The notes beneath the pieces are model-generated. The model did no database searches, was not told the DNA's origin, and saw only the letters and a list, made by a program, of their open reading frames with translations. A stretch of DNA of 64,000 nt from a virus, in IMG/VR virus record IMGVR_UViG_3300027863_000020, positions 1 to 64,000 of that record; one strand, given 5' to 3'. Shown one piece after another: positions 3,338-52,287 of this stretch. Every line of letters begins with the position of its first letter. Within the stretch, counting starts at the first letter, position 1. The position numbers and the translations under genes are program-made.

Positions 3338-3406
3338 GAGCTAGAAGGGGAGTCGAACCCCCACACCCATCCCAAGGACAGGATGCTACCATTACATCAT
3401 CTAGCC
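3338..3406 (-). tRNA. atypical tRNA or tRNA-like element (possible Gln, TTG; short anticodon/variable region; no encoded CCA)
   Basis: Minus strand GGCTAGA-TG-ATGTAATGGTAGCAT-CCTGTCCTTGGGATGGG-TGT-GGGGGTTCGACTCCCCT-TCTAGCT-C: 7-bp acceptor stem, D-loop GG, canonical T-loop TTCGACT. Confidence 0.6.
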
Positions 3407-19793: not shown

Positions 19794-19801
19794 TATTTAT
19801 G
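19794..19801 (-). promoter_or_regulatory. late promoter (CATAAATA) for kinase gene
   Basis: GCATAAATA on minus strand. Confidence 0.65.
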
Positions 19802-19849: not shown

Positions 19850-20043
19850 CATTCTCTTCCACTCAATTTGTTCTTGAGGTCTTCGATTAGACCATCAATA
19901 GTCCATTAAACCCATTTCCAGACGATTCTAGGCATCTTCTCTGGATAGTTCGATAGATTGGTCATCTTATCGGACGATAGGCTTAAATCGCATAATACGG
20001 GTTTTCTGATTTGTAAAAATTCGTTTACATTCAAAAACTACCC

Positions 20044-20191
20044 TTGACAAGCGTTCGGACTGCTTCCATATTTGGATTTATCTCGTAAATCCTATTCCTC
20101 CCTTCGGTCGTCATACGGATTTACTTATAAATCCAAATATGATATAAAATTAGATATATATTTATATTATATATATTATATTAAAATAATA
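20044..20191 (+). other. candidate replication origin: promoter, long inverted repeat and AT-rich unwinding element
   Basis: TTGACA-N17-CATATT (20044-20072); inverted repeats 20067-20080/20128-20141 and 20085-20092/20117-20124; about 50 nt with a single G (20142-20191); lies at the strand switch. Confidence 0.45.
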
Positions 20192-20250
20192 CCGCAACAT
20201 CCGTGCCAATTCGTTTAGATTTAGATTCTTTAGTTTCGATTGATTCCGAA

Positions 20251-20279
20251 TTGACAAATTTACGACCAGAACCCATATT
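20251..20279 (+). promoter_or_regulatory. early/middle promoter for uvsY (probably leaderless mRNA)
   Basis: TTGACA-N17-CATATT, ATG 6 nt downstream. Confidence 0.8.
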
Positions 20280-20285
20280 GAGCGC

Positions 20286-20741
20286 ATGGAACAAGATCAA
20301 CCCGAAGAACAGACCCCCGAAACTCTCTCGAATGGCCCGGAAGAGGTTTTCCCCGAATTCACGAACCATGAAGAGGTCAATTCCACCCTCTTGTCGATGC
20401 CCCGATTGATCGGATTGACGGTCGATAAGATGCTCTTTGCCCGAAGAGAGGCCAATATCGCATCCCGAAAGCTACGGGAACGGGAAGCGAAGCTCTATCA
20501 GGACTACAAAACGGGGAAGGACAGACGATGGACGAAAGAGGAAATCCTGATCCTGTATCCATCCGATACCGTTTGGCTCGAACTGAAGCGGGAACTGGAT
20601 TTGGCAACCGCCAAGGCCGAATACTATGAAAACCGCCTCAAAATGCTGAAAGAGACTGGTTGGCTACTCCGAACCTATGTGGATCATCAATTGTACCTAT
20701 CGGGCGAAGGGAAGAATCCAAGGTTCGTCAATCGGGGATAA
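20286..20741 (+). CDS. uvsY: recombination mediator UvsY
   Basis: Helical 151-aa protein ...KLYQDYKTG...TKEEI...D...LKMLKETGWLLRTYVDHQLYLSG, UvsY-like C-terminus; upstream of uvsW. Confidence 0.7.
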   Translation: MEQDQPEEQTPETLSNGPEEVFPEFTNHEEVNSTLLSMPRLIGLTVDKMLFARREANIASRKLREREAKLYQDYKTGKDRRWTKEEILILYPSDTVWLELKRELDLATAKAEYYENRLKMLKETGWLLRTYVDHQLYLSGEGKNPRFVNRG

Positions 20742-20768
20742 TCCCTTAAATTTTGAAAATTTGCGGGA

Positions 20769-20849
20769 AGACCGTGAAGCAATAATTTCACCATGAAATT
20801 ATTTGTCTCAAAATATGCCCAAATTGAGACAGAACTGCGATAACGGTCT
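20769..20849. other. small three-way-junction structured element
   Basis: Closing stem AGACCGT/ACGGTCT encloses hairpins AATAATTTCA/TGAAATTATT and TGTCTCAA/TTGAGACA. Confidence 0.5.
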
Positions 20850-20875
20850 ATCCGTGATACGCAACGGTCACTCTC

Positions 20876-20904
20876 TTGACATTTATCTTCGCAGAATCCA
20901 TATT
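20876..20904 (+). promoter_or_regulatory. early/middle promoter driving the large ncRNA
   Basis: TTGACA-N17-CATATT with no credible CDS for about 800 nt downstream. Confidence 0.8.
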
Positions 20905-20910
20905 TTAAGC

Positions 20911-21710
20911 ACGGACTACAACGGGGAAACCCTGTGTAGGGCGGGTTAAGAGGTGTCTAGCGTTTCCCGCTATTCACCCGCTTGCACAAAGACCAATCCA
21001 TTCGCAAGGGTGGCTTGGAGGTACGACTGAAACGCATACCTGTCTCAACGAATAGGCGAGAAGCCGTGATCGAGAGGTCATATGAGAAGCCACAGAACGG
21101 TGGGGTTCCGTACACGGGAAGGCGGTTTTATCAGTGCAAGTGCCTTGGAGTTATAGGTCGCCAAGGAAGTGATGCGAAAGATCAAGGGGTGATGCCAATG
21201 TAGTGTACCGAATCGTGAAAGGCGAATCGGATGACAGGATTGGAGAGCTTCCCCCAAGTGTCAATCGGGCTTACTCCCGCAAGGGTTCGGTAGGATTGAT
21301 GCGAACAAGGATACGAAGTCAAATGGCTATGGGTGAAAGTCCAAGCAAGGTTGCTAAAATACGGTGGCGTAAAACGAAAGTGCTCCGATACACCTAGAAA
21401 TAGGCCCGGGTACTATGAAGGGTATGATACACATGAACCATACCGTTCCATAGCGGTGAGCGTTGAGAACCTAACGAGAGACCATTTGACGGACAACATC
21501 ACGGGGATTGGTCAAAGTCGATATGGTGTCGATGAAGGCCATTCGAGAGAGGAAAGTCTGGGAACCATTGAGAGTGCATAGCGCATAGGCGGGTCTGCAT
21601 GGGGATGGTGAAAGGAATGACCGATTGAGAGTGGAAATAACTGGCTCCCACCACGACAACAAAGAAGAGAATTTTTGAAGCGACATTGTGTTGCCTTGGG
21701 TTCCCATTGT
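20911..21710 (+). ncRNA. large (~800 nt) ornate structured ncRNA, GOLLD/ROOL-size class, family unassigned
   Basis: Own promoter; many GNRA-capped hairpins; long-range helices 20981-87/21134-40, 21318-26/21482-90, 21559-66/21699-706; no credible ORF. Confidence 0.75.
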
Positions 21711-21723
21711 CCTAAATAGGAGT

Positions 21724-22059
21724 ATGGCTAAACGAAACATTGACCGAATCCGCAATGCAAGAAAACAGATTGCATCATCCAGTGCCAAGGTGTCTCCACC
21801 AAGGCGGTATTTTTTGTTTTCAGCGATTGCTACCTACAAGAGCGATCCGTCAAAGCAAGTGTGTCAATTCATTGCATTCGAGCACAACGGGTTCCCATCG
21901 TACAGGGAAGTCCGTGGGTATTTCCATTCCCATCTTGCCAAGGTTTCTTTGGAAAGGGCAATGGAAGAGATTGATAAGAAGATGAAGAGTCTGATTGTCA
22001 ATTCGTTCTCTGAATTCAAGAGTTGTCAGGACTTCCTTGACTTCATCAAGGCTAGGTAG
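21724..22059 (+). CDS. hypothetical protein
   Basis: MAKRNIDR... after AGGAG RBS. Confidence 0.6.
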   Translation: MAKRNIDRIRNARKQIASSSAKVSPPRRYFLFSAIATYKSDPSKQVCQFIAFEHNGFPSYREVRGYFHSHLAKVSLERAMEEIDKKMKSLIVNSFSEFKSCQDFLDFIKAR

Positions 22060-22064
22060 TCTGG

Positions 22065-23590
22065 TGCGTATTCGTGACATCGAATTAGCGAAGCGGGATG
22101 AGGATTGTATCATCTTCAAGATGGTCGATTCCGTTTTTGTCAATGTGATAGCCGAAGAAGGACTCTATCGGTGGTTGAGCGAACAGTTCAAATTCAGGCA
22201 TCCCAATTGGAAGGCGATGCAAAAGAAGATGCCGGGTTGGCAGGGATTTGTCAGGTTCCTCAAGCAAGACGGGTTGTTCCCAATAGGGCTTATTCAGAGG
22301 GCGTGTGAGTGCATTGACAATGCAGGGTACAATTGGTACTTCGAGCCTGTAAAGGGCGTGTTATACGACAGTGCGGTGACTCCCGAACGAGTCGAAACGA
22401 TGGCTTCCAGAATCCTTGATAACTCTGGAATGGAACTCCGTGATTATCAGTTGGAAGCATTGACGGCTATCTTCACCAACAAGAGATGCGTCATTGAAAG
22501 CGGTGTCGGGTCTGGAAAGTCGTTGGTGATCTATCTGGTTGTCCGTGCTATGCTCATGCAGGGAATACGAACATTGATCGTGGTTCCCAACACTGGACTT
22601 GTCAATCAGTTGTTCTCCAACTTCGTGGATGATTATGACTGGACGGATTGTGGTGATTACTGCAATGTTGTTTACAGCGGGGTTCGCTATGATGCAGAAG
22701 CTCCGATCCTCATATCCACTTGGCAGAGCTTGGTCAATAAGGACGGGCGGTTCTTCAAGGACTTCGGATGTGTCATAATTGACGAAGCGCATGGAGCAAA
22801 GGCAGAGTCGTTGATAAGCGTTTCCGAAATGTGCGTCAATGCCAATTACCGAATCGGAACCACGGGAACTCTCCCCGATGAGCCACTGGACTTGATGCGT
22901 ATTGAAGGACATCTTGGTCGAGTGGTGTTCAATCTATCAGCGGGTGAACTTGTCAAGCGTGGGGTATTGTCGAAGTTCAAGATCAATTCGTTGTTGATCC
23001 ACAACGAGCATAATCCATTCGAGACATACGAAGAAGAAATGAACTATGTCGAGACATTGGCTTGGCGCAATGCAGTAGCCCTCAATGTGATCCGAAAGAA
23101 GACACAACCGACCGACAATGTTGTCTTGCTCTTCAAGAAGCGAGAGCACCTTGAGACCATGCTTGAATCGTGTAAGAACGAGTTTCCCGACAGGATTGTC
23201 TATGCGATTCATGGAGACATTGCCCCGCTTGAGCGAGAGCGCATCCGTCAAGAGATGATTGCCAAGGGAGGCCATGTCCTTTGCGCCACTTATCAAACCA
23301 TGTCAGAAGGCATCAATATCCCACGGCTCGACCATATCATATTCTGTTCCCCGTACCGTGCCAAGATCAAGGTTATGCAGTCGCTAGGCCGTGTTTTGAG
23401 AAAGCACATGGACAAGGCGATGGCATACCTATGGGATATGGTAGATGTCTTTGCGGGAGCCAAGAACGACTCATTCACTTGGAAACACTACAAGAAGCGA
23501 TTGCAGTATTACAAGGACAACGAGTTCGAGGTAGAGGAATTCAATGTCGGGCTTCCACCTCAATCGGTCAAGAACAAGTTTGTTCGATAA
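22065..23590 (+). CDS. uvsW: UvsW SF2 DNA/RNA helicase
   Basis: LRDYQ, GVGSGKSL, ISTWQS, IDEAH, GTTGT, SEGINIP, QSLGRVLR; start approximate. Confidence 0.92.
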
Positions 23591-23619
23591 TTGACAGGAT
23601 TTGGGTAGGAATCCATATT
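23591..23619 (+). promoter_or_regulatory. early/middle promoter for the QueC-TAGT cassette
   Basis: TTGACA-N17-CATATT. Confidence 0.8.
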
Positions 23620-28897: not shown

Positions 28898-29290
28898 ATG
28901 AACCATATTTATGCAAAGACCCTTCCGAAGCTACTCAATGGAGCCATTGCGTTCAACAATGGCATTCGTATCGACCTATTGATCCAGAATCAAGTAGGGT
29001 TCGACTATGAGTATTACCATGACATCCCCGCTTCAAACCGTCTTGGATTGCCTGTATCGGTTCCATTGACGGTGAACAATGGGGTGGCTAGTGCCGACCC
29101 CAATCCGAACAACCGAATCGCCTTGTTCGCCACTCCCGAAACGACAGACCTGTATGGTGCGGTGGTGTATCTCCCATCGGGTGAACTTCTCTTCTATATC
29201 GAGTTCGGTGATATTCGCCATTCAAAGGACGGTGCGTTCCGTCTCATGTATCCGTGCGATCTAATCACATTGCGGGTAAGGGAAGTATGA
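28898..29290 (+). CDS. putative virion structural protein
   Basis: Follows late promoter; beta-rich, N-terminus IYAKTLPKLLNGAIAF resembles small phage tail/baseplate proteins. Confidence 0.5.
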   Translation: MNHIYAKTLPKLLNGAIAFNNGIRIDLLIQNQVGFDYEYYHDIPASNRLGLPVSVPLTVNNGVASADPNPNNRIALFATPETTDLYGAVVYLPSGELLFYIEFGDIRHSKDGAFRLMYPCDLITLRVREV

Positions 29291-38566: not shown

Positions 38567-39469
38567 ATGGCAGACAAGACCCTAGAACAACTCAAGACCC
38601 TCCTTGATGGTGGAACCTACAAGGCGTTCAAAACACGCCTGAATGCGATCATTGACCGTAAGGTGAATGAGCGGGTTGCGGTCATTGAGGAACAGAAACT
38701 TGAGGCCATTCGGGTCATCAAGGACAAGTTGCAGAAGAAGGCCGAACAGTTCACAGCCGACAAGACCCGTGAACTGGAAACACAGTTCAATGCCGTCCTT
38801 GAGGAATCCAAGAAGCAAATGAAGGATGAGATGGTACAATCCTTGCTTCTCGTGGAATCCAAACTGGTCTCCCACCTTGACCGTGTTCTGGAAGAATCCG
38901 TGAACACCAACACCCCCACCGACATCCTTGAGGAAGCGGTGAAGGCACAACATTATGGGAAGGTCGCCAAGGCAGTTGCTTCGGTGATCGAGGAACAGAA
39001 CATTGTCATTGACAAGTCTGGTTCTTCCCGCATCCAAGAGCTTGAGCAGATGGTCTCCCAATTGAATGGTAAATTGATGGAAGAGCAGACGGCACGGGAA
39101 AACATTTCCAATCGTGCCAACTCTCTCCAACGGGAACTTCTCCTTGAGAGCAAGACAAGTGGACTCGATGAGGATGGACGAAAGAAAATCCTTGGTCAAT
39201 TCCGTGAGTCGAGCTACGAAGTAATACAAGAACAAATTGACAAATCCATTGAACTCTTACAAGAGTCCCGCAAGCAAGAGCGAAGGGGACGGGTTGCAAA
39301 CAATAACACCCTAGTAGGTGATTCCGCTCCAAACATGAATTTGAGCGGTGGCAAGAAGTTGATTGAAGAAGAGGTCAAGAACCCTACGGCAACGGCACGG
39401 ACTCCCGTGTTGGAAGAGTCCGTACAGGCTCCTTCGGTCTTTGACGCAATTGATGACTTGCTCCCATAA
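38567..39469 (+). CDS. gp22: prohead core scaffold protein
   Basis: Coiled-coil, Glu-rich, many LEE/IEE sites; between gp21 and gp23. Confidence 0.8.
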   Translation: MADKTLEQLKTLLDGGTYKAFKTRLNAIIDRKVNERVAVIEEQKLEAIRVIKDKLQKKAEQFTADKTRELETQFNAVLEESKKQMKDEMVQSLLLVESKLVSHLDRVLEESVNTNTPTDILEEAVKAQHYGKVAKAVASVIEEQNIVIDKSGSSRIQELEQMVSQLNGKLMEEQTARENISNRANSLQRELLLESKTSGLDEDGRKKILGQFRESSYEVIQEQIDKSIELLQESRKQERRGRVANNNTLVGDSAPNMNLSGGKKLIEEEVKNPTATARTPVLEESVQAPSVFDAIDDLLP

Positions 39470-39511
39470 GGGAACCACAGGGTATCAACCAATCCATTTC
39501 GAGGTATAAAG

Positions 39512-41065
39512 ATGAAACCATCTATCCCCGCTCCTCTTCAGCATCAGGCCATTGCCAAGAAGTATCTGGCAAAGAAGTGGTCTGAAGTCAAGTCCAAGAA
39601 GCTCTCCGTTTCTTCCATCATGGAAGAAGACCGCAAAGAGAATGTGGCACAGCTTCTCGAAAACCTTGCCAATCTACCCGGTTCTGCATTCTTGATGCAG
39701 GAACAGAATGGCTCTTCTGGCATTGACGGCTCTTCCTTGGGCAATGCTTCCATCAATCAGGGTATGTTCACTGCCGCCACCCTTGACCCCGATGCACACA
39801 AGTTCCGTCCGATTGAGATGGCACTGGTTCGTCGTGCTCAAGCCGATCTGTTCGCCTACAATCTCGCAGGTGTTCAAGCCATGAACGGCCCGGTCGGTCT
39901 GGCATACGCCCTCCGTTTCTTCTATGACGGCACTCGCACCGAAGCGGGCTTCCAGTCCGTTGGTCAGTACAGTGGTTGGAGCGGTAAGCCCGGTGTTGCG
40001 GGTTCCAATGGCGTGTTCAAGGTCACGAATGCGGGTGTGGTTGCCGACCTGAAGGCCGCTGGCCTGAATGGTGTCGATGCCAAGACCCTCATCAACATGA
40101 CCACTGGCGAATGGGCAGTGACTTGGACTGGTGCTTCGACCACCGTGTACACTGCGGGTACAGCCGTTGCGGGTTGGGTTGGTGGCGGTTGGGGTCAAGC
40201 CCTGTCCGTGACCGATGCTGAAAAGCTCGCAATCATGGCTCCTTCTGCGGGTACTGCTCCCCGTGACATCGGAACTGCGATTCCGAATGCCACTACTGGC
40301 GTGTCCCCTTACGCCATGCGTCAGCTCAAGATGTCCTTCGACAAGAAGAGCATTGATGCCCAAGACCGTATGCTTGGTGCTTCCTTCTCCGTCCAGTCGC
40401 TCTATGACATCCGCACCATGCAGGGTGTGGACATCGGGCGTGAAATGGTCAAGAAGCTCACCTATGAGTCTGGTGCGGAAATCGACCGTGAAATCCTCTG
40501 GAAGTGCAAGAACGCCGCCGTCTTCGGTGATGGTGGTCAGAATGGTGTGGTCGAAACCTTCGATCCTACCACCGTTTCCTCCACCTTCCTGTACGACAAG
40601 AAGGCCGCCATTGCCGACAAGTTGATTTCGCTCTCCAACGAAATCCACACTGCAACCTTGCAGGGTTCGGGCAACATCCTTGTTGCTTCTCCCCGTGTTT
40701 GCACGGCTCTTCAGACCATCCAGAACGGCTCCTTCAAGTCTTCTGGTGTGTTCAACTTCGACCAGAAGGGCTTGATCGAGGTCGGTACTCTTGATGGTCG
40801 CATCAAGGTCTATCGTGATCCTTGGGCATACTTCGATGGTGGCGTGGACTACGCTCTGGTCGCCTACAAGGGCGCAGGGATTGACGAAGCGGGTGTGCTC
40901 TATCACCCCTATATGCTCAATCTGGTGAACACTGCGGTTGCACAGGAAGACTTCGGTACTCGCATTGGCGTTCTCTCTCGCTATGCCATCACCGACAGCC
41001 TCTTGGGTAGCGGTCGCTACTACCGCTACATCGAATTCACTGGTCTGGCCGCTCTCGGTCTGTAA
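39512..41065 (+). CDS. gp23: major capsid protein
   Basis: KKW..V, AQLLEN, ALVRRA, GVQAMNGPVGLAYALR, EIDREI, GTLDGRIKVYRDP, YKG, RYA. Confidence 0.95.
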   Translation: MKPSIPAPLQHQAIAKKYLAKKWSEVKSKKLSVSSIMEEDRKENVAQLLENLANLPGSAFLMQEQNGSSGIDGSSLGNASINQGMFTAATLDPDAHKFRPIEMALVRRAQADLFAYNLAGVQAMNGPVGLAYALRFFYDGTRTEAGFQSVGQYSGWSGKPGVAGSNGVFKVTNAGVVADLKAAGLNGVDAKTLINMTTGEWAVTWTGASTTVYTAGTAVAGWVGGGWGQALSVTDAEKLAIMAPSAGTAPRDIGTAIPNATTGVSPYAMRQLKMSFDKKSIDAQDRMLGASFSVQSLYDIRTMQGVDIGREMVKKLTYESGAEIDREILWKCKNAAVFGDGGQNGVVETFDPTTVSSTFLYDKKAAIADKLISLSNEIHTATLQGSGNILVASPRVCTALQTIQNGSFKSSGVFNFDQKGLIEVGTLDGRIKVYRDPWAYFDGGVDYALVAYKGAGIDEAGVLYHPYMLNLVNTAVAQEDFGTRIGVLSRYAITDSLLGSGRYYRYIEFTGLAALGL

Positions 41066-41124: not shown

Positions 41125-41153
41125 TTGACAGGATAATGAGTTGAATCCATATT
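41125..41153 (+). promoter_or_regulatory. early/middle promoter (leaderless ORF downstream)
   Basis: TTGACA-N17-CATATT, ATG 6 nt downstream. Confidence 0.75.
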
Positions 41154-41159
41154 TTAAGC

Positions 41160-41546
41160 ATGGATATACTGGACATCGTAGCAATAGTCATCATAGCCCC
41201 GATCTTCGCATTGACGATGATTGTGTTGGGTATGCTATTGTTCGGAACGATATGGTGGATTTGGGATAAGTTCGAGCGATCCCTGTACCCCATAACATTC
41301 GTCCGTGCGTCAATCTTGGCATTGTCAATCATTCTGGTTCCCGTATCCTTGACTCATTCCGTTGTTCGCTTCACAGACAGTCCAGTCGTTGCGTATGACT
41401 TCGGAACCTATGAGTTTGTCAATGTCATCGAAATCGTGAGTTATGAACATCCGAATTTTCTGGTGATTGAGCCGAATTTTCCATTTGTGAAAATCCGACC
41501 CATGATGGGCGGGAGTACGGATCGAATATGCGCTTTGGGTACATAG
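41160..41546 (+). CDS. membrane protein (two predicted TM helices)
   Basis: Two hydrophobic segments in the N-terminal half. Confidence 0.6.
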   Translation: MDILDIVAIVIIAPIFALTMIVLGMLLFGTIWWIWDKFERSLYPITFVRASILALSIILVPVSLTHSVVRFTDSPVVAYDFGTYEFVNVIEIVSYEHPNFLVIEPNFPFVKIRPMMGGSTDRICALGT

Positions 41547-43901: not shown

Positions 43902-44768
43902 ATGGCACATACCCAACAAGACGGTGTACAGGACGGTGATCGGTACAATGGGAAGGCTTGGTATTCTCCCAATGTCCTTCGTAGCATCACGCTTGGCCTT
44001 GCCGATATGTTCAACGACATCGTGGTTCGCAAATTCGCAAAGGACTTCATCACTGTAATCAAAGAGATTCCAGTTCCTCTCCATGTCGCTCCGAAGACGA
44101 AAGAATACTTCGAGAGAAAAGAAGATTATACATCGGATGGTGGGGGTCGCTATTACCAACAAGTCCCCGCATTGGCTCTTGTGTTCACTGGAATGAATTA
44201 TGCCCAACAACGGGTGATGGCTCCCAATGAAGAACGGGCGTGGCCTTATCCAGTCGATTCTTCGGTTGATCCCGATTACTTCAAGGACTATTCACCGACT
44301 CCGTATGACTTGACCTATGAGTTGAAGATCAGAACAGAGTCGATGGAAGATTACATCCAGATCATCGAACAAATCATTCCATTCTTCAATCCTTCATTGA
44401 CACTCCGAATGAAGGAAATCCCGTTCCTTGATGTTGCTCGAAATGTTCGTGTCAATCTGGACAATCCTTCCATCGAGATTCCACAGGAATTGACTGGAAG
44501 CGATATGAACCAGATCGAAGGAACATTGAGCTTGACTTGCGAAGCCTACCTGTATCGCCCAATCACGAATGCGATCTTCTTGAAGGAACTCTACAAATAC
44601 ATCTCCGTCATTGAGCTTGATGGTGACAAGAGCTTTGATCGAAGGATCAGAACACTCATGGCATTTTCGGAAGAAGAGATACCACAGGAAGCCGTCAATA
44701 AGAGGAAAACCCTCTATGGATATTGGTTGTACGAACTTTTGGATCAAGTCAATGATATTGGTGCATAA
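43902..44768 (+). CDS. gp15: tail sheath stabiliser / tail terminator
   Basis: MFNDIVV, VPL..APK, PTPYDLTYEL, QIIEQIIPFFNP, YLY.P. Confidence 0.9.
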   Translation: MAHTQQDGVQDGDRYNGKAWYSPNVLRSITLGLADMFNDIVVRKFAKDFITVIKEIPVPLHVAPKTKEYFERKEDYTSDGGGRYYQQVPALALVFTGMNYAQQRVMAPNEERAWPYPVDSSVDPDYFKDYSPTPYDLTYELKIRTESMEDYIQIIEQIIPFFNPSLTLRMKEIPFLDVARNVRVNLDNPSIEIPQELTGSDMNQIEGTLSLTCEAYLYRPITNAIFLKELYKYISVIELDGDKSFDRRIRTLMAFSEEEIPQEAVNKRKTLYGYWLYELLDQVNDIGA

Positions 44769-44776
44769 ATAGAAGT

Positions 44777-52074: not shown

Positions 52075-52287
52075 ATGAGACAGAATTGGACACATAATAG
52101 GTTCCGTTGTGGCGAAGTGGTTGATACCTGTTTTGGTGTTGGTAAGGTCGTTGGAATCGACCTCCCTCAATCACAGAATGCGTGGCGGTGGCTTGTGGAA
52201 ATCGTCAATCCCACCCGCCCGATATATGGTTCACCAGTCCTTGCATTCTTCGACAAGGAATTGACTGGAATTGAAACCCATAAATAG
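52075..52287 (+). CDS. small hypothetical protein (SH3-like fold possible), probably leaderless
   Basis: TTGCAC-N17-TATATT promoter ends 6 nt before ATG. Confidence 0.5.
   Translation: MRQNWTHNRFRCGEVVDTCFGVGKVVGIDLPQSQNAWRWLVEIVNPTRPIYGSPVLAFFDKELTGIETHK

Follow-up and report, generated by a model that had tools for sequence, protein, structure and literature searches.

A candidate large structured RNA gene in the recombination gene block of a T4-like phage

Beyond ribosomes, RNase P and introns, very few natural RNAs longer than 500 nt are known that keep a conserved and intricate fold, and each of those described so far, OLE, GOLLD, ROOL and HEARO/omega RNA, has brought unexpected biology or architecture. 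Transcripts can also act through their structure in replication: the folding of ColE1 RNA II governs formation of its RNA-DNA hybrid, and an origin of phage T4 lies at uvsY, where UvsW unwinds the R-loop. GOLLD (RF01998) and ROOL (RF03087) are elaborate non-coding RNAs of phages and prophages, ~600 to >800 nt long and of unknown function (bioRxiv 10.1101/2024.12.08.627333). They are rich in hairpins whose loops engage in tertiary or intermolecular contacts, they form RNA-only cages, and they often lie near tRNA islands (bioRxiv 10.1101/2024.12.08.627333). OLE RNA (RF01071) is a large structured RNA that forms a ribonucleoprotein with small dedicated proteins encoded alongside it (PMC9723947).

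We analysed a 64-kb stretch of viral DNA (64,000 nucleotides, hereafter the window) that constitutes the first part of a complete 150.8-kb phage genome in IMG/VR and that carries a T4-like gene set, including genes for a UvsY-like mediator, a Dda-like helicase and a UvsW-like helicase as well as QueC-like and glucosyltransferase genes. These genes are remote from those of cultured phages (the UvsW-like helicase has ~35% identity to cyanophage UvsW), and a DNA search with the RNA locus matched no cultured phage. The original prediction had placed an ornate non-coding RNA of ~800 nt at 20911-21710, between uvsY and uvsW. The upstream neighbour is indeed a UvsY-like recombination mediator gene (20286-20741, plus strand; PHROG 231, E 1.2e-05), the C-terminus of which is intact by comparison with relatives, but uvsW is not adjacent: an ORF of 111 codons (ORF111; 21724-22059, plus strand) intervenes, and the UvsW-like helicase gene (22064-23590, plus strand; PHROG 16, E 8e-81) starts 4 nt after it. 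Literature searches turned up no account of a structured RNA at uvsY/uvsW. The reading we favour, with a probability of roughly 0.55, is that the locus encodes a stand-alone, early-expressed large structured RNA (~745 nt) of a new family that would function through its fold, possibly in company with ORF111.

A constrained non-coding stretch behind an early promoter

The gap between uvsY and ORF111 (20742-21723, 982 nt) has no coding potential. Each of the six frames contains 6 to 19 stops, and all three stop types occur in every frame, so that no genetic code yields an open frame and coding under other genetic codes is ruled out. The gaps of two relatives, L007 and L008, likewise contain no conserved ORF, in agreement with the lack of a coding sequence that had been proposed.

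The promoter TTGACA-N17-CATATT that had been thought to point into this stretch lies where it was predicted (20876-20904, plus strand) and belongs to a genuine class. Specifically, with at most one mismatch this pattern occurs at 11 sites in the window, compared with 0.57 expected, all of them co-oriented with genes, and the class shares an extended CCATATT. The RNA promoter is kept in L004, a relative with ~90% identity to the window, despite substitutions in the spacer, and in L008 as TTGACA-N17-GATATT. Sites of the class span positions 485-41153 of the window (for example 20044-20072, 20251-20279, 23591-23619 and 41125-41153); for most of the other ten a start codon is 7 to 50 nt away, whereas the RNA promoter is separated from the next ORF by 820 nt. 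Several sites of the class end 7 nt before an ATG, as they do at uvsY (20286) and at a gene at 41160, which implies that these early mRNAs are leaderless. Judging by the position of the promoter, transcription of the RNA would start at about 20911, and we propose that early in infection this sigma-70-type promoter directs transcription of the plus strand from there to about 21655.

Upstream of the promoter, the spacer that follows the uvsY stop (20734-20875, plus strand) contains a hairpin resembling a terminator (20734-20746, with a T-run) and a conserved pair of inverted repeats. These repeats (20781-20803 and 20807-20830) are perfect or near-perfect, are kept in L004 amid varying surroundings, and could be operator or processing sites.

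We measured divergence between the window and L004, taking four-fold degenerate sites from three flanking genes. Across 20911-21710, 35 of 800 sites differ (4.4%), compared with 23% at four-fold degenerate sites and 3.1% at codon positions 1 and 2. The stretch is under purifying selection, and by this comparison the non-coding sequence is constrained as strongly as amino-acid-changing positions. The 35 substitutions fall 14:11:10 by phase, that is, with no three-base periodicity, and the flanking genes show a strong third-position bias in the same comparison. Five indels, each of a single base, are scattered through the RNA stretch, and not one difference is found across 20893-21194. The 170 nt from uvsY to the promoter differ by 13% (87% identity) and are thus less conserved than the RNA. 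Conservation begins at the -10 region of the promoter and stops near 21655, with the helix that closes the 3' domain; the conserved core of the putative structured RNA measures ~745 nt (20911-21655, plus strand) and ends short of the 21710 originally proposed. Some of the strong conservation between the window and L004 could stem from recent exchange of the segment between phages.

Compensatory changes in the plus-strand fold

Three sequences are informative for covariation, namely the window, L004 (~90%) and L007 (~70%), the last a contig of 1,079 nt whose coverage of the RNA starts at about 21100. The RNAalifold consensus of these three has an energy of -278.7, compared with -244.9 ± 7.4 for 40 column shuffles that keep the gap pattern and conservation (z -4.6), and it contains 34 doubly compensated pairs, compared with 21.4 ± 4.2 in the shuffles, none of which (0/40) reaches that number. 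Thus homologues carry compensatory changes in the plus-strand fold, as would be expected of the structured RNA originally proposed. The pair statistics lean largely on L007, a diverged and partial sequence, with L004 nearly identical over the 5' 300 nt, and we regard covariation among three sequences as good evidence that falls short of conclusive.

The folding energy of the single sequence is no better than that of shuffles (z -1.17 for the plus strand and -1.36 for the minus strand), an outcome that had been listed beforehand among those that would refute the proposed RNA. This energy is a weak test for an RNA of 800 nt, and we consider the comparative data to outweigh the null result. The minimum-free-energy structure of the window was likewise rejected as a model, since the substitutions of the relatives fit it no better than slid controls, and the comparative structure was used instead. 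Both the consensus energy, which reaches only -225.0 for the reverse complement, and the count of GNRA-capped hairpins with stems of at least 3 bp point to the plus strand as the RNA strand, as had been claimed: the plus strand has 7 such hairpins, compared with 2.1 ± 1.4 in shuffles (p ~0.002), and the opposite strand has 3. All six GNRA-capped hairpins that had been named are present at their places.

In the fold that we propose, the RNA has at least three parts. Its 5' domain is invariant and carries three GNRA-capped hairpins, helix 21318-26/21482-90 closes a multi-branch domain in the centre, and a long hairpin makes up the 3' domain at 21504-21649. The 5'-terminal hairpin is capped by GAAA (20916-20939, plus strand; local fold z -3.6), and the 5' domain that is without substitutions relative to L004 (20893-21194, plus strand) also holds CCATTC-GCAA-GGGTGG (20998-21013) and GTGATC-GAGA-GGTCAT (21066-21081). 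With L004 identical in this domain and L007 beginning at about 21100, the support for pairing comes from elsewhere in the RNA. For the long-range helix 20981/21134, complementarity is present in the window, L004 is identical there, and L007 is without the 5' strand.

Downstream of the 5' domain, a central hairpin pair (21184-21310, plus strand) comprises helices 21186-94/21248-55, 21195-204/21234-43, 21208-10/21228-30 and 21264-74/21290-300 and includes CCC-GCAA-GGG. Here 6 of 37 pairs have changed on both sides, compared with 2.7 ± 1.2 in shuffles (2 of 500 reach this number) and 0 to 2 in slid controls. The 3' domain (21504-21649, plus strand) is a long irregular hairpin with eight helical segments and, in L007, an inserted apical extension. 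Across 21500-21655, 10 of its 35 pairs have changed on both sides; shuffles average 3.6 ± 1.4, with 0 of 500 reaching this number, and sliding the partners yields 1 to 3. Both domain counts were made on model-fitted alignments. The extra hairpins of L007 are inserted at helix tips and junctions of the consensus, which is where structured RNAs typically gain insertions. Elsewhere in the window, a covariance model of the central hairpins gave a weak match (E 0.034) at 39448-39491, a hairpin capped by UCCC-AUAA-GGGA upstream of a gene starting at 39512, which is probably a chance match.

In the multi-branch domain (21318-21490, plus strand), GGUGAAAGUCC is invariant. The domain also has a hairpin, CCUA-GAAA-UAGG (21393-21404), that had been predicted from one sequence and is compensated in L007, where it reads CUCA-GAAA-UGAG. 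The helix that closes the domain is GTCAAATGG/CCATTTGAC in the window, GTCAGATAG/CTATCTGAT in L004 and GAGTAGTGA/TCACTACGA in L007, and its position is fixed: in each sequence it precedes the invariant GGTGAAAGTCC by 5 to 6 nt and the invariant CATCACGGGG by 6 nt. Thus, while all three of the long-range complementarities originally put forward are present in the window, it is helix 21318/21482 that has compensatory changes in three sequences; helix 21559/21699 finds no support, as two of its pairs are broken in L004 and L007 contains no complementary sequence.

A non-coding stretch, a promoter of its own, purifying selection and compensatory changes are the generic hallmarks of a structured non-coding RNA gene, and on these grounds the locus would qualify as one. 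The core of the original prediction, a conserved structured non-coding RNA on the plus strand, is supported by three of these findings, the promoter being a genuine early one.

Relatives and the accompanying ORF111

The RNA lineage is rare, with three to five sequences known. Among 5.8 billion proteins, a search with UvsY gave four matches and a search with ORF111 five; an ORF111 profile found two clusters only among 1.8 billion representatives and none in JGI metagenomes and IMG/VR. A search with the N-terminus of the helicase gave no useful further homologues, and DNA patterns derived from conserved blocks of the RNA matched nothing in viral, metagenome and genome collections. Within the 150.8-kb genome there is no second copy of the RNA, and there is no repeat array at the RNA locus. 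Three of the relatives (L003, L004 and L005) are mutually identical in the region and share ~90% identity with the window, the ORF111 of L007 is 66% identical, and a further contig, with 61% UvsY identity, has according to its gene table a gap of 844 nt followed by an ORF of 111 aa. In L006, by comparison of L006:480-640 with window 20742-22063, uvsY (70% identical) is followed by 35 nt with TATAAATA and then by uvsW, with neither the gap nor ORF111; no terminal repeats were found at the L006 junctions. RNA and ORF111 are thus present or absent together in the relatives, and the existence of a relative without both indicates that the RNA plus ORF111 form an accessory cassette of ~1.3 kb.

Two sets of short matches were discarded in these searches. 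The sequence GCGACNTNGTGTTGCCTTG occurs in 22 contigs, in all of them within one unrelated phage gene and with no other similarity; we take these matches as chance, since several random ones are expected for 17 fixed bases. Matches to GGTGAAAGTCCAA...CAAGG in three viral contigs have nothing in common beyond the motif. The exact match spans 22 nt, from 21679 to 21700 of the window, and falls where that gene ends (...SDIVLPWRDR*); the 22 contigs are IMG/VR records from one phage group, and we judge the resemblance coincidental.

A second subgroup is represented by L008, with the full gap (L008:590-1371), and by L012, with the last 230 nt (L012:1-230). In L008 the early promoter occupies the same relative place and is followed by a gap of ~780 nt without ORFs that is 60% purine, compared with 49-51% in flanking genes. 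A GCAA-capped hairpin of different sequence lies at the same distance from the promoter as the 5' hairpin of the window (local fold z -5.2). Beyond a linker motif of ~35 nt beside ORF111, three covariance models run with filters off, nhmmer and shuffled alignment scores gave no similarity between the L008/L012 gap and the window RNA. Two explanations offer themselves: very rapid divergence of the RNA from one subgroup to the other despite constraint inside each, or the presence of a different RNA in this slot. The ORF111 homologues of this subgroup (L008:1372-1710 and L012 ~227-556) had been called at 81-82 aa by gene callers, and an upstream in-frame ATG restores a basic N-terminal tail in each (MNNRRIDD... 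and MIRRIDGKK...).

Two observations would fit a functionless, decaying remnant of a mobile element, an intron or a dead gene, its apparent conservation due to recent horizontal exchange: relative to L006 the cassette is an indel, and the sequences at this site cannot be aligned from one subgroup to the other. We consider this very improbable: the RNA diverges five-fold less than neutral sites do, a restraint not shared by the linker or by the 170 nt alongside, and the pattern repeats independently in the second subgroup, L008 and L012 being 88% identical in the last 80 nt of the RNA core, 40% in the linker and 71% in ORF111. Moreover, compensatory changes keep the pairing, no intron or ribozyme family is matched, and no host gene is split.

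Downstream of the RNA core lies a fast-evolving linker (21656-21710, plus strand) that contains a stem, GCGAC/GUUGC (21680-21694), conserved in sequence around a variable loop; the linker has a 50-nt insertion in L007 and a tandem duplication in L008. It is followed by CCTAAATA (21711-21718, plus strand), a variant of the late-promoter-like motif CATAAATA, 5 nt before the ATG of ORF111. The motif CATAAATA itself occurs 13 times in the window, and the combined CMTAAATA occurs 14 times, compared with 2.0 expected (a seven-fold excess), in 13 of 14 cases co-oriented with the surrounding genes; the exception lies at 28906-28913 on the minus strand. Further examples are found at 19794-19801 (minus strand), 44764-44771 and 52279-52286, and at the six plus-strand sites checked the distance to the next clear start codon is 5 to 40 nt. 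The motif precedes ORF111 in 5 of 5 sequences, and from its placement ORF111 probably has a late promoter of its own, like uvsW in L006 (TATAAATA). In all five, the hypervariable linker together with this late-like CMTAAATA separates the RNA core from ORF111, so that the core stands as a separate module.

ORF111 accompanies the RNA in all sequences. It encodes a basic protein of 111 aa (pI 10, with 9 K/R within the first 30 residues) that has no Pfam or PHROG match. Its model has the order beta-beta-alpha-alpha-beta-alpha (pLDDT 84), for which Foldseek against the PDB gave no clear match (best E 0.03), and an Atlas structural search returned only hypothetical viral proteins. The best match of a wide VIA-align search (Z 5.0, to ribosomal protein chains of the eL20/LX type) is too low to indicate anything beyond a widely shared arrangement.

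A search for an intrinsic terminator downstream of the RNA came up empty, so the RNA may be the 5' part of an ORF111-uvsW message. If so, early transcription from 20876 would continue through ORF111 and uvsW, and the RNA, as a structured 5' leader of giant size, could act in cis on how these genes are translated or how stable their message is, for instance by sequestering the ORF111 Shine-Dalgarno sequence in a UCCU-AAAU-AGGA hairpin. The RNA, ORF111 and uvsW share one strand with no terminator detected between, RNA and ORF111 are always co-present or co-absent, and the window, L004 and L007 do not differ in the hairpin containing the Shine-Dalgarno sequence (21710-21721). However, this hairpin is missing in L008 and L012, conservation is lowest right beside the ORF, the opposite of what is expected for a translational operator, and a leader of 745 conserved nt in three domains has no known precedent in phages. 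The late-promoter-like motif 5 nt before the ATG, which would make ORF111 independent of the early transcript, also counts against a leader. We think a role in cis on the whole unlikely, and suggest instead that a stand-alone RNA would work in trans, as a folded RNA and not as message, most likely as a scaffold or in a ribonucleoprotein, possibly with the adjacent basic ORF111 as the protein that travels with it in the accessory cassette set between uvsY and uvsW. The transcript, its ends, its action in trans and the partnership with ORF111 are what we infer from the observations set out here.

The genomic setting raises the question of replication. Up to ~19.8 kb the genes point leftward, from 20.3 kb on they point rightward, and the cumulative GC skew of the whole genome has its minimum at ~20 kb and its maximum at ~88 kb, positions that coincide with a divergent and a convergent switch of gene orientation, respectively. 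As in T4 ori(uvsY), the transcript might serve as an origin primer, a purine-rich RNA forming a persistent R-loop that primes replication, with its fold controlling the hybrid in the way known for ColE1 RNA II and with UvsW removing the hybrid. The RNA is 59-60% purine with a GC skew of +0.2, the locus lies between uvsY and uvsW, and the skew minimum and divergent strand switch are 0.6 kb upstream, all of which would suit such a role. Nevertheless, the switch in transcription direction explains the skew minimum without an origin, and the AT-rich stretch that would be the candidate unwinding region (19850-20285) lies outside the RNA. In addition, the cassette is absent from L006 and so is not an essential origin, and compensated long-range helices and many GNRA loops exceed what an R-loop needs. 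An origin primer therefore seems to us doubtful, and more so than a leader. The AT-rich stretch itself has a GC content of 0.32-0.39 and holds three early promoters.

Comparison with known large RNAs

A cmscan of the whole window against Rfam at gathering thresholds gave 0 hits, and the same search of 20700-21900 with E up to 10 gave only 'skipping-rope' (E 9.4). Permissive Rfam searches of L004, L007, L008 and L012 returned nothing consistent. These negatives cover GOLLD, ROOL, OLE, HEARO (RF02033), RNase P, tmRNA, group I and group II introns and small ribozymes. The proposal that the RNA belongs with GOLLD and ROOL thus finds no support in a family match, and of the two possibilities that had been offered, a known class or a new one, only the new class survives.

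Two known classes had further reason to be set aside. A group I or group II intron would be at odds with complete uvsY and ORF111 genes and with L006, in which uvsY is joined directly to uvsW, as well as with the lack of a match to Rfam introns at E up to 10. A look-alike of the bacterial RNase P P4/CR-I element GAGGAAAGUCC, namely GAGAGGAAAGUCUGGG (21546-21561, with the string GAGGAAAGUC at 21548), is not conserved in L007, and there is no match to RF00010 or RF00011.

Like ColE1 RNA II and the T4 ori(uvsY) transcripts, the RNA is non-coding, purine-rich, found in a neighbourhood of replication and recombination genes and apparently promoter-driven. It differs from them in being much larger and more ornate, and in being dispensable in a relative (L006). 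With OLE it shares the combination of a large structured RNA and a small protein gene alongside, here ORF111. However, OLE is bacterial (Bacillota) and not homologous, and the suggested partnership with ORF111 draws on co-occurrence and basic character.

Set in a lytic T4-like phage, the candidate is directly testable: its promoter is clear, its size is defined and it comes with a potential protein partner. By type it resembles GOLLD and ROOL, the large ornate RNAs encoded by phages. It differs from them in giving no sequence or structure match to these families at E up to 10, and its known sequences are a handful, all from one T4-like clade. It is also not adjacent to tRNAs: the sole tRNA in the window, tRNA-Gln at 3338-3406 (ARAGORN), is 17 kb away, and the neighbours are uvsY and ORF111/uvsW. 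More speculatively, the RNA might be the first of a new class of giant, ornate RNAs from phages, folding or assembling by itself, as in the GOLLD and ROOL cages, or catalytic, and carried as a mobile cassette of RNA plus small protein in the T4-like recombination block, with the equally purine-rich but non-alignable RNA of the sister subgroup a fast-diverging or replaced version; we offer this tentatively, as clearly less probable than the stand-alone folded RNA that we favour. If that favoured reading is true, large ornate RNAs would extend to a new phage group and to a new setting, among recombination genes and not, as for GOLLD and ROOL, at tRNA islands.
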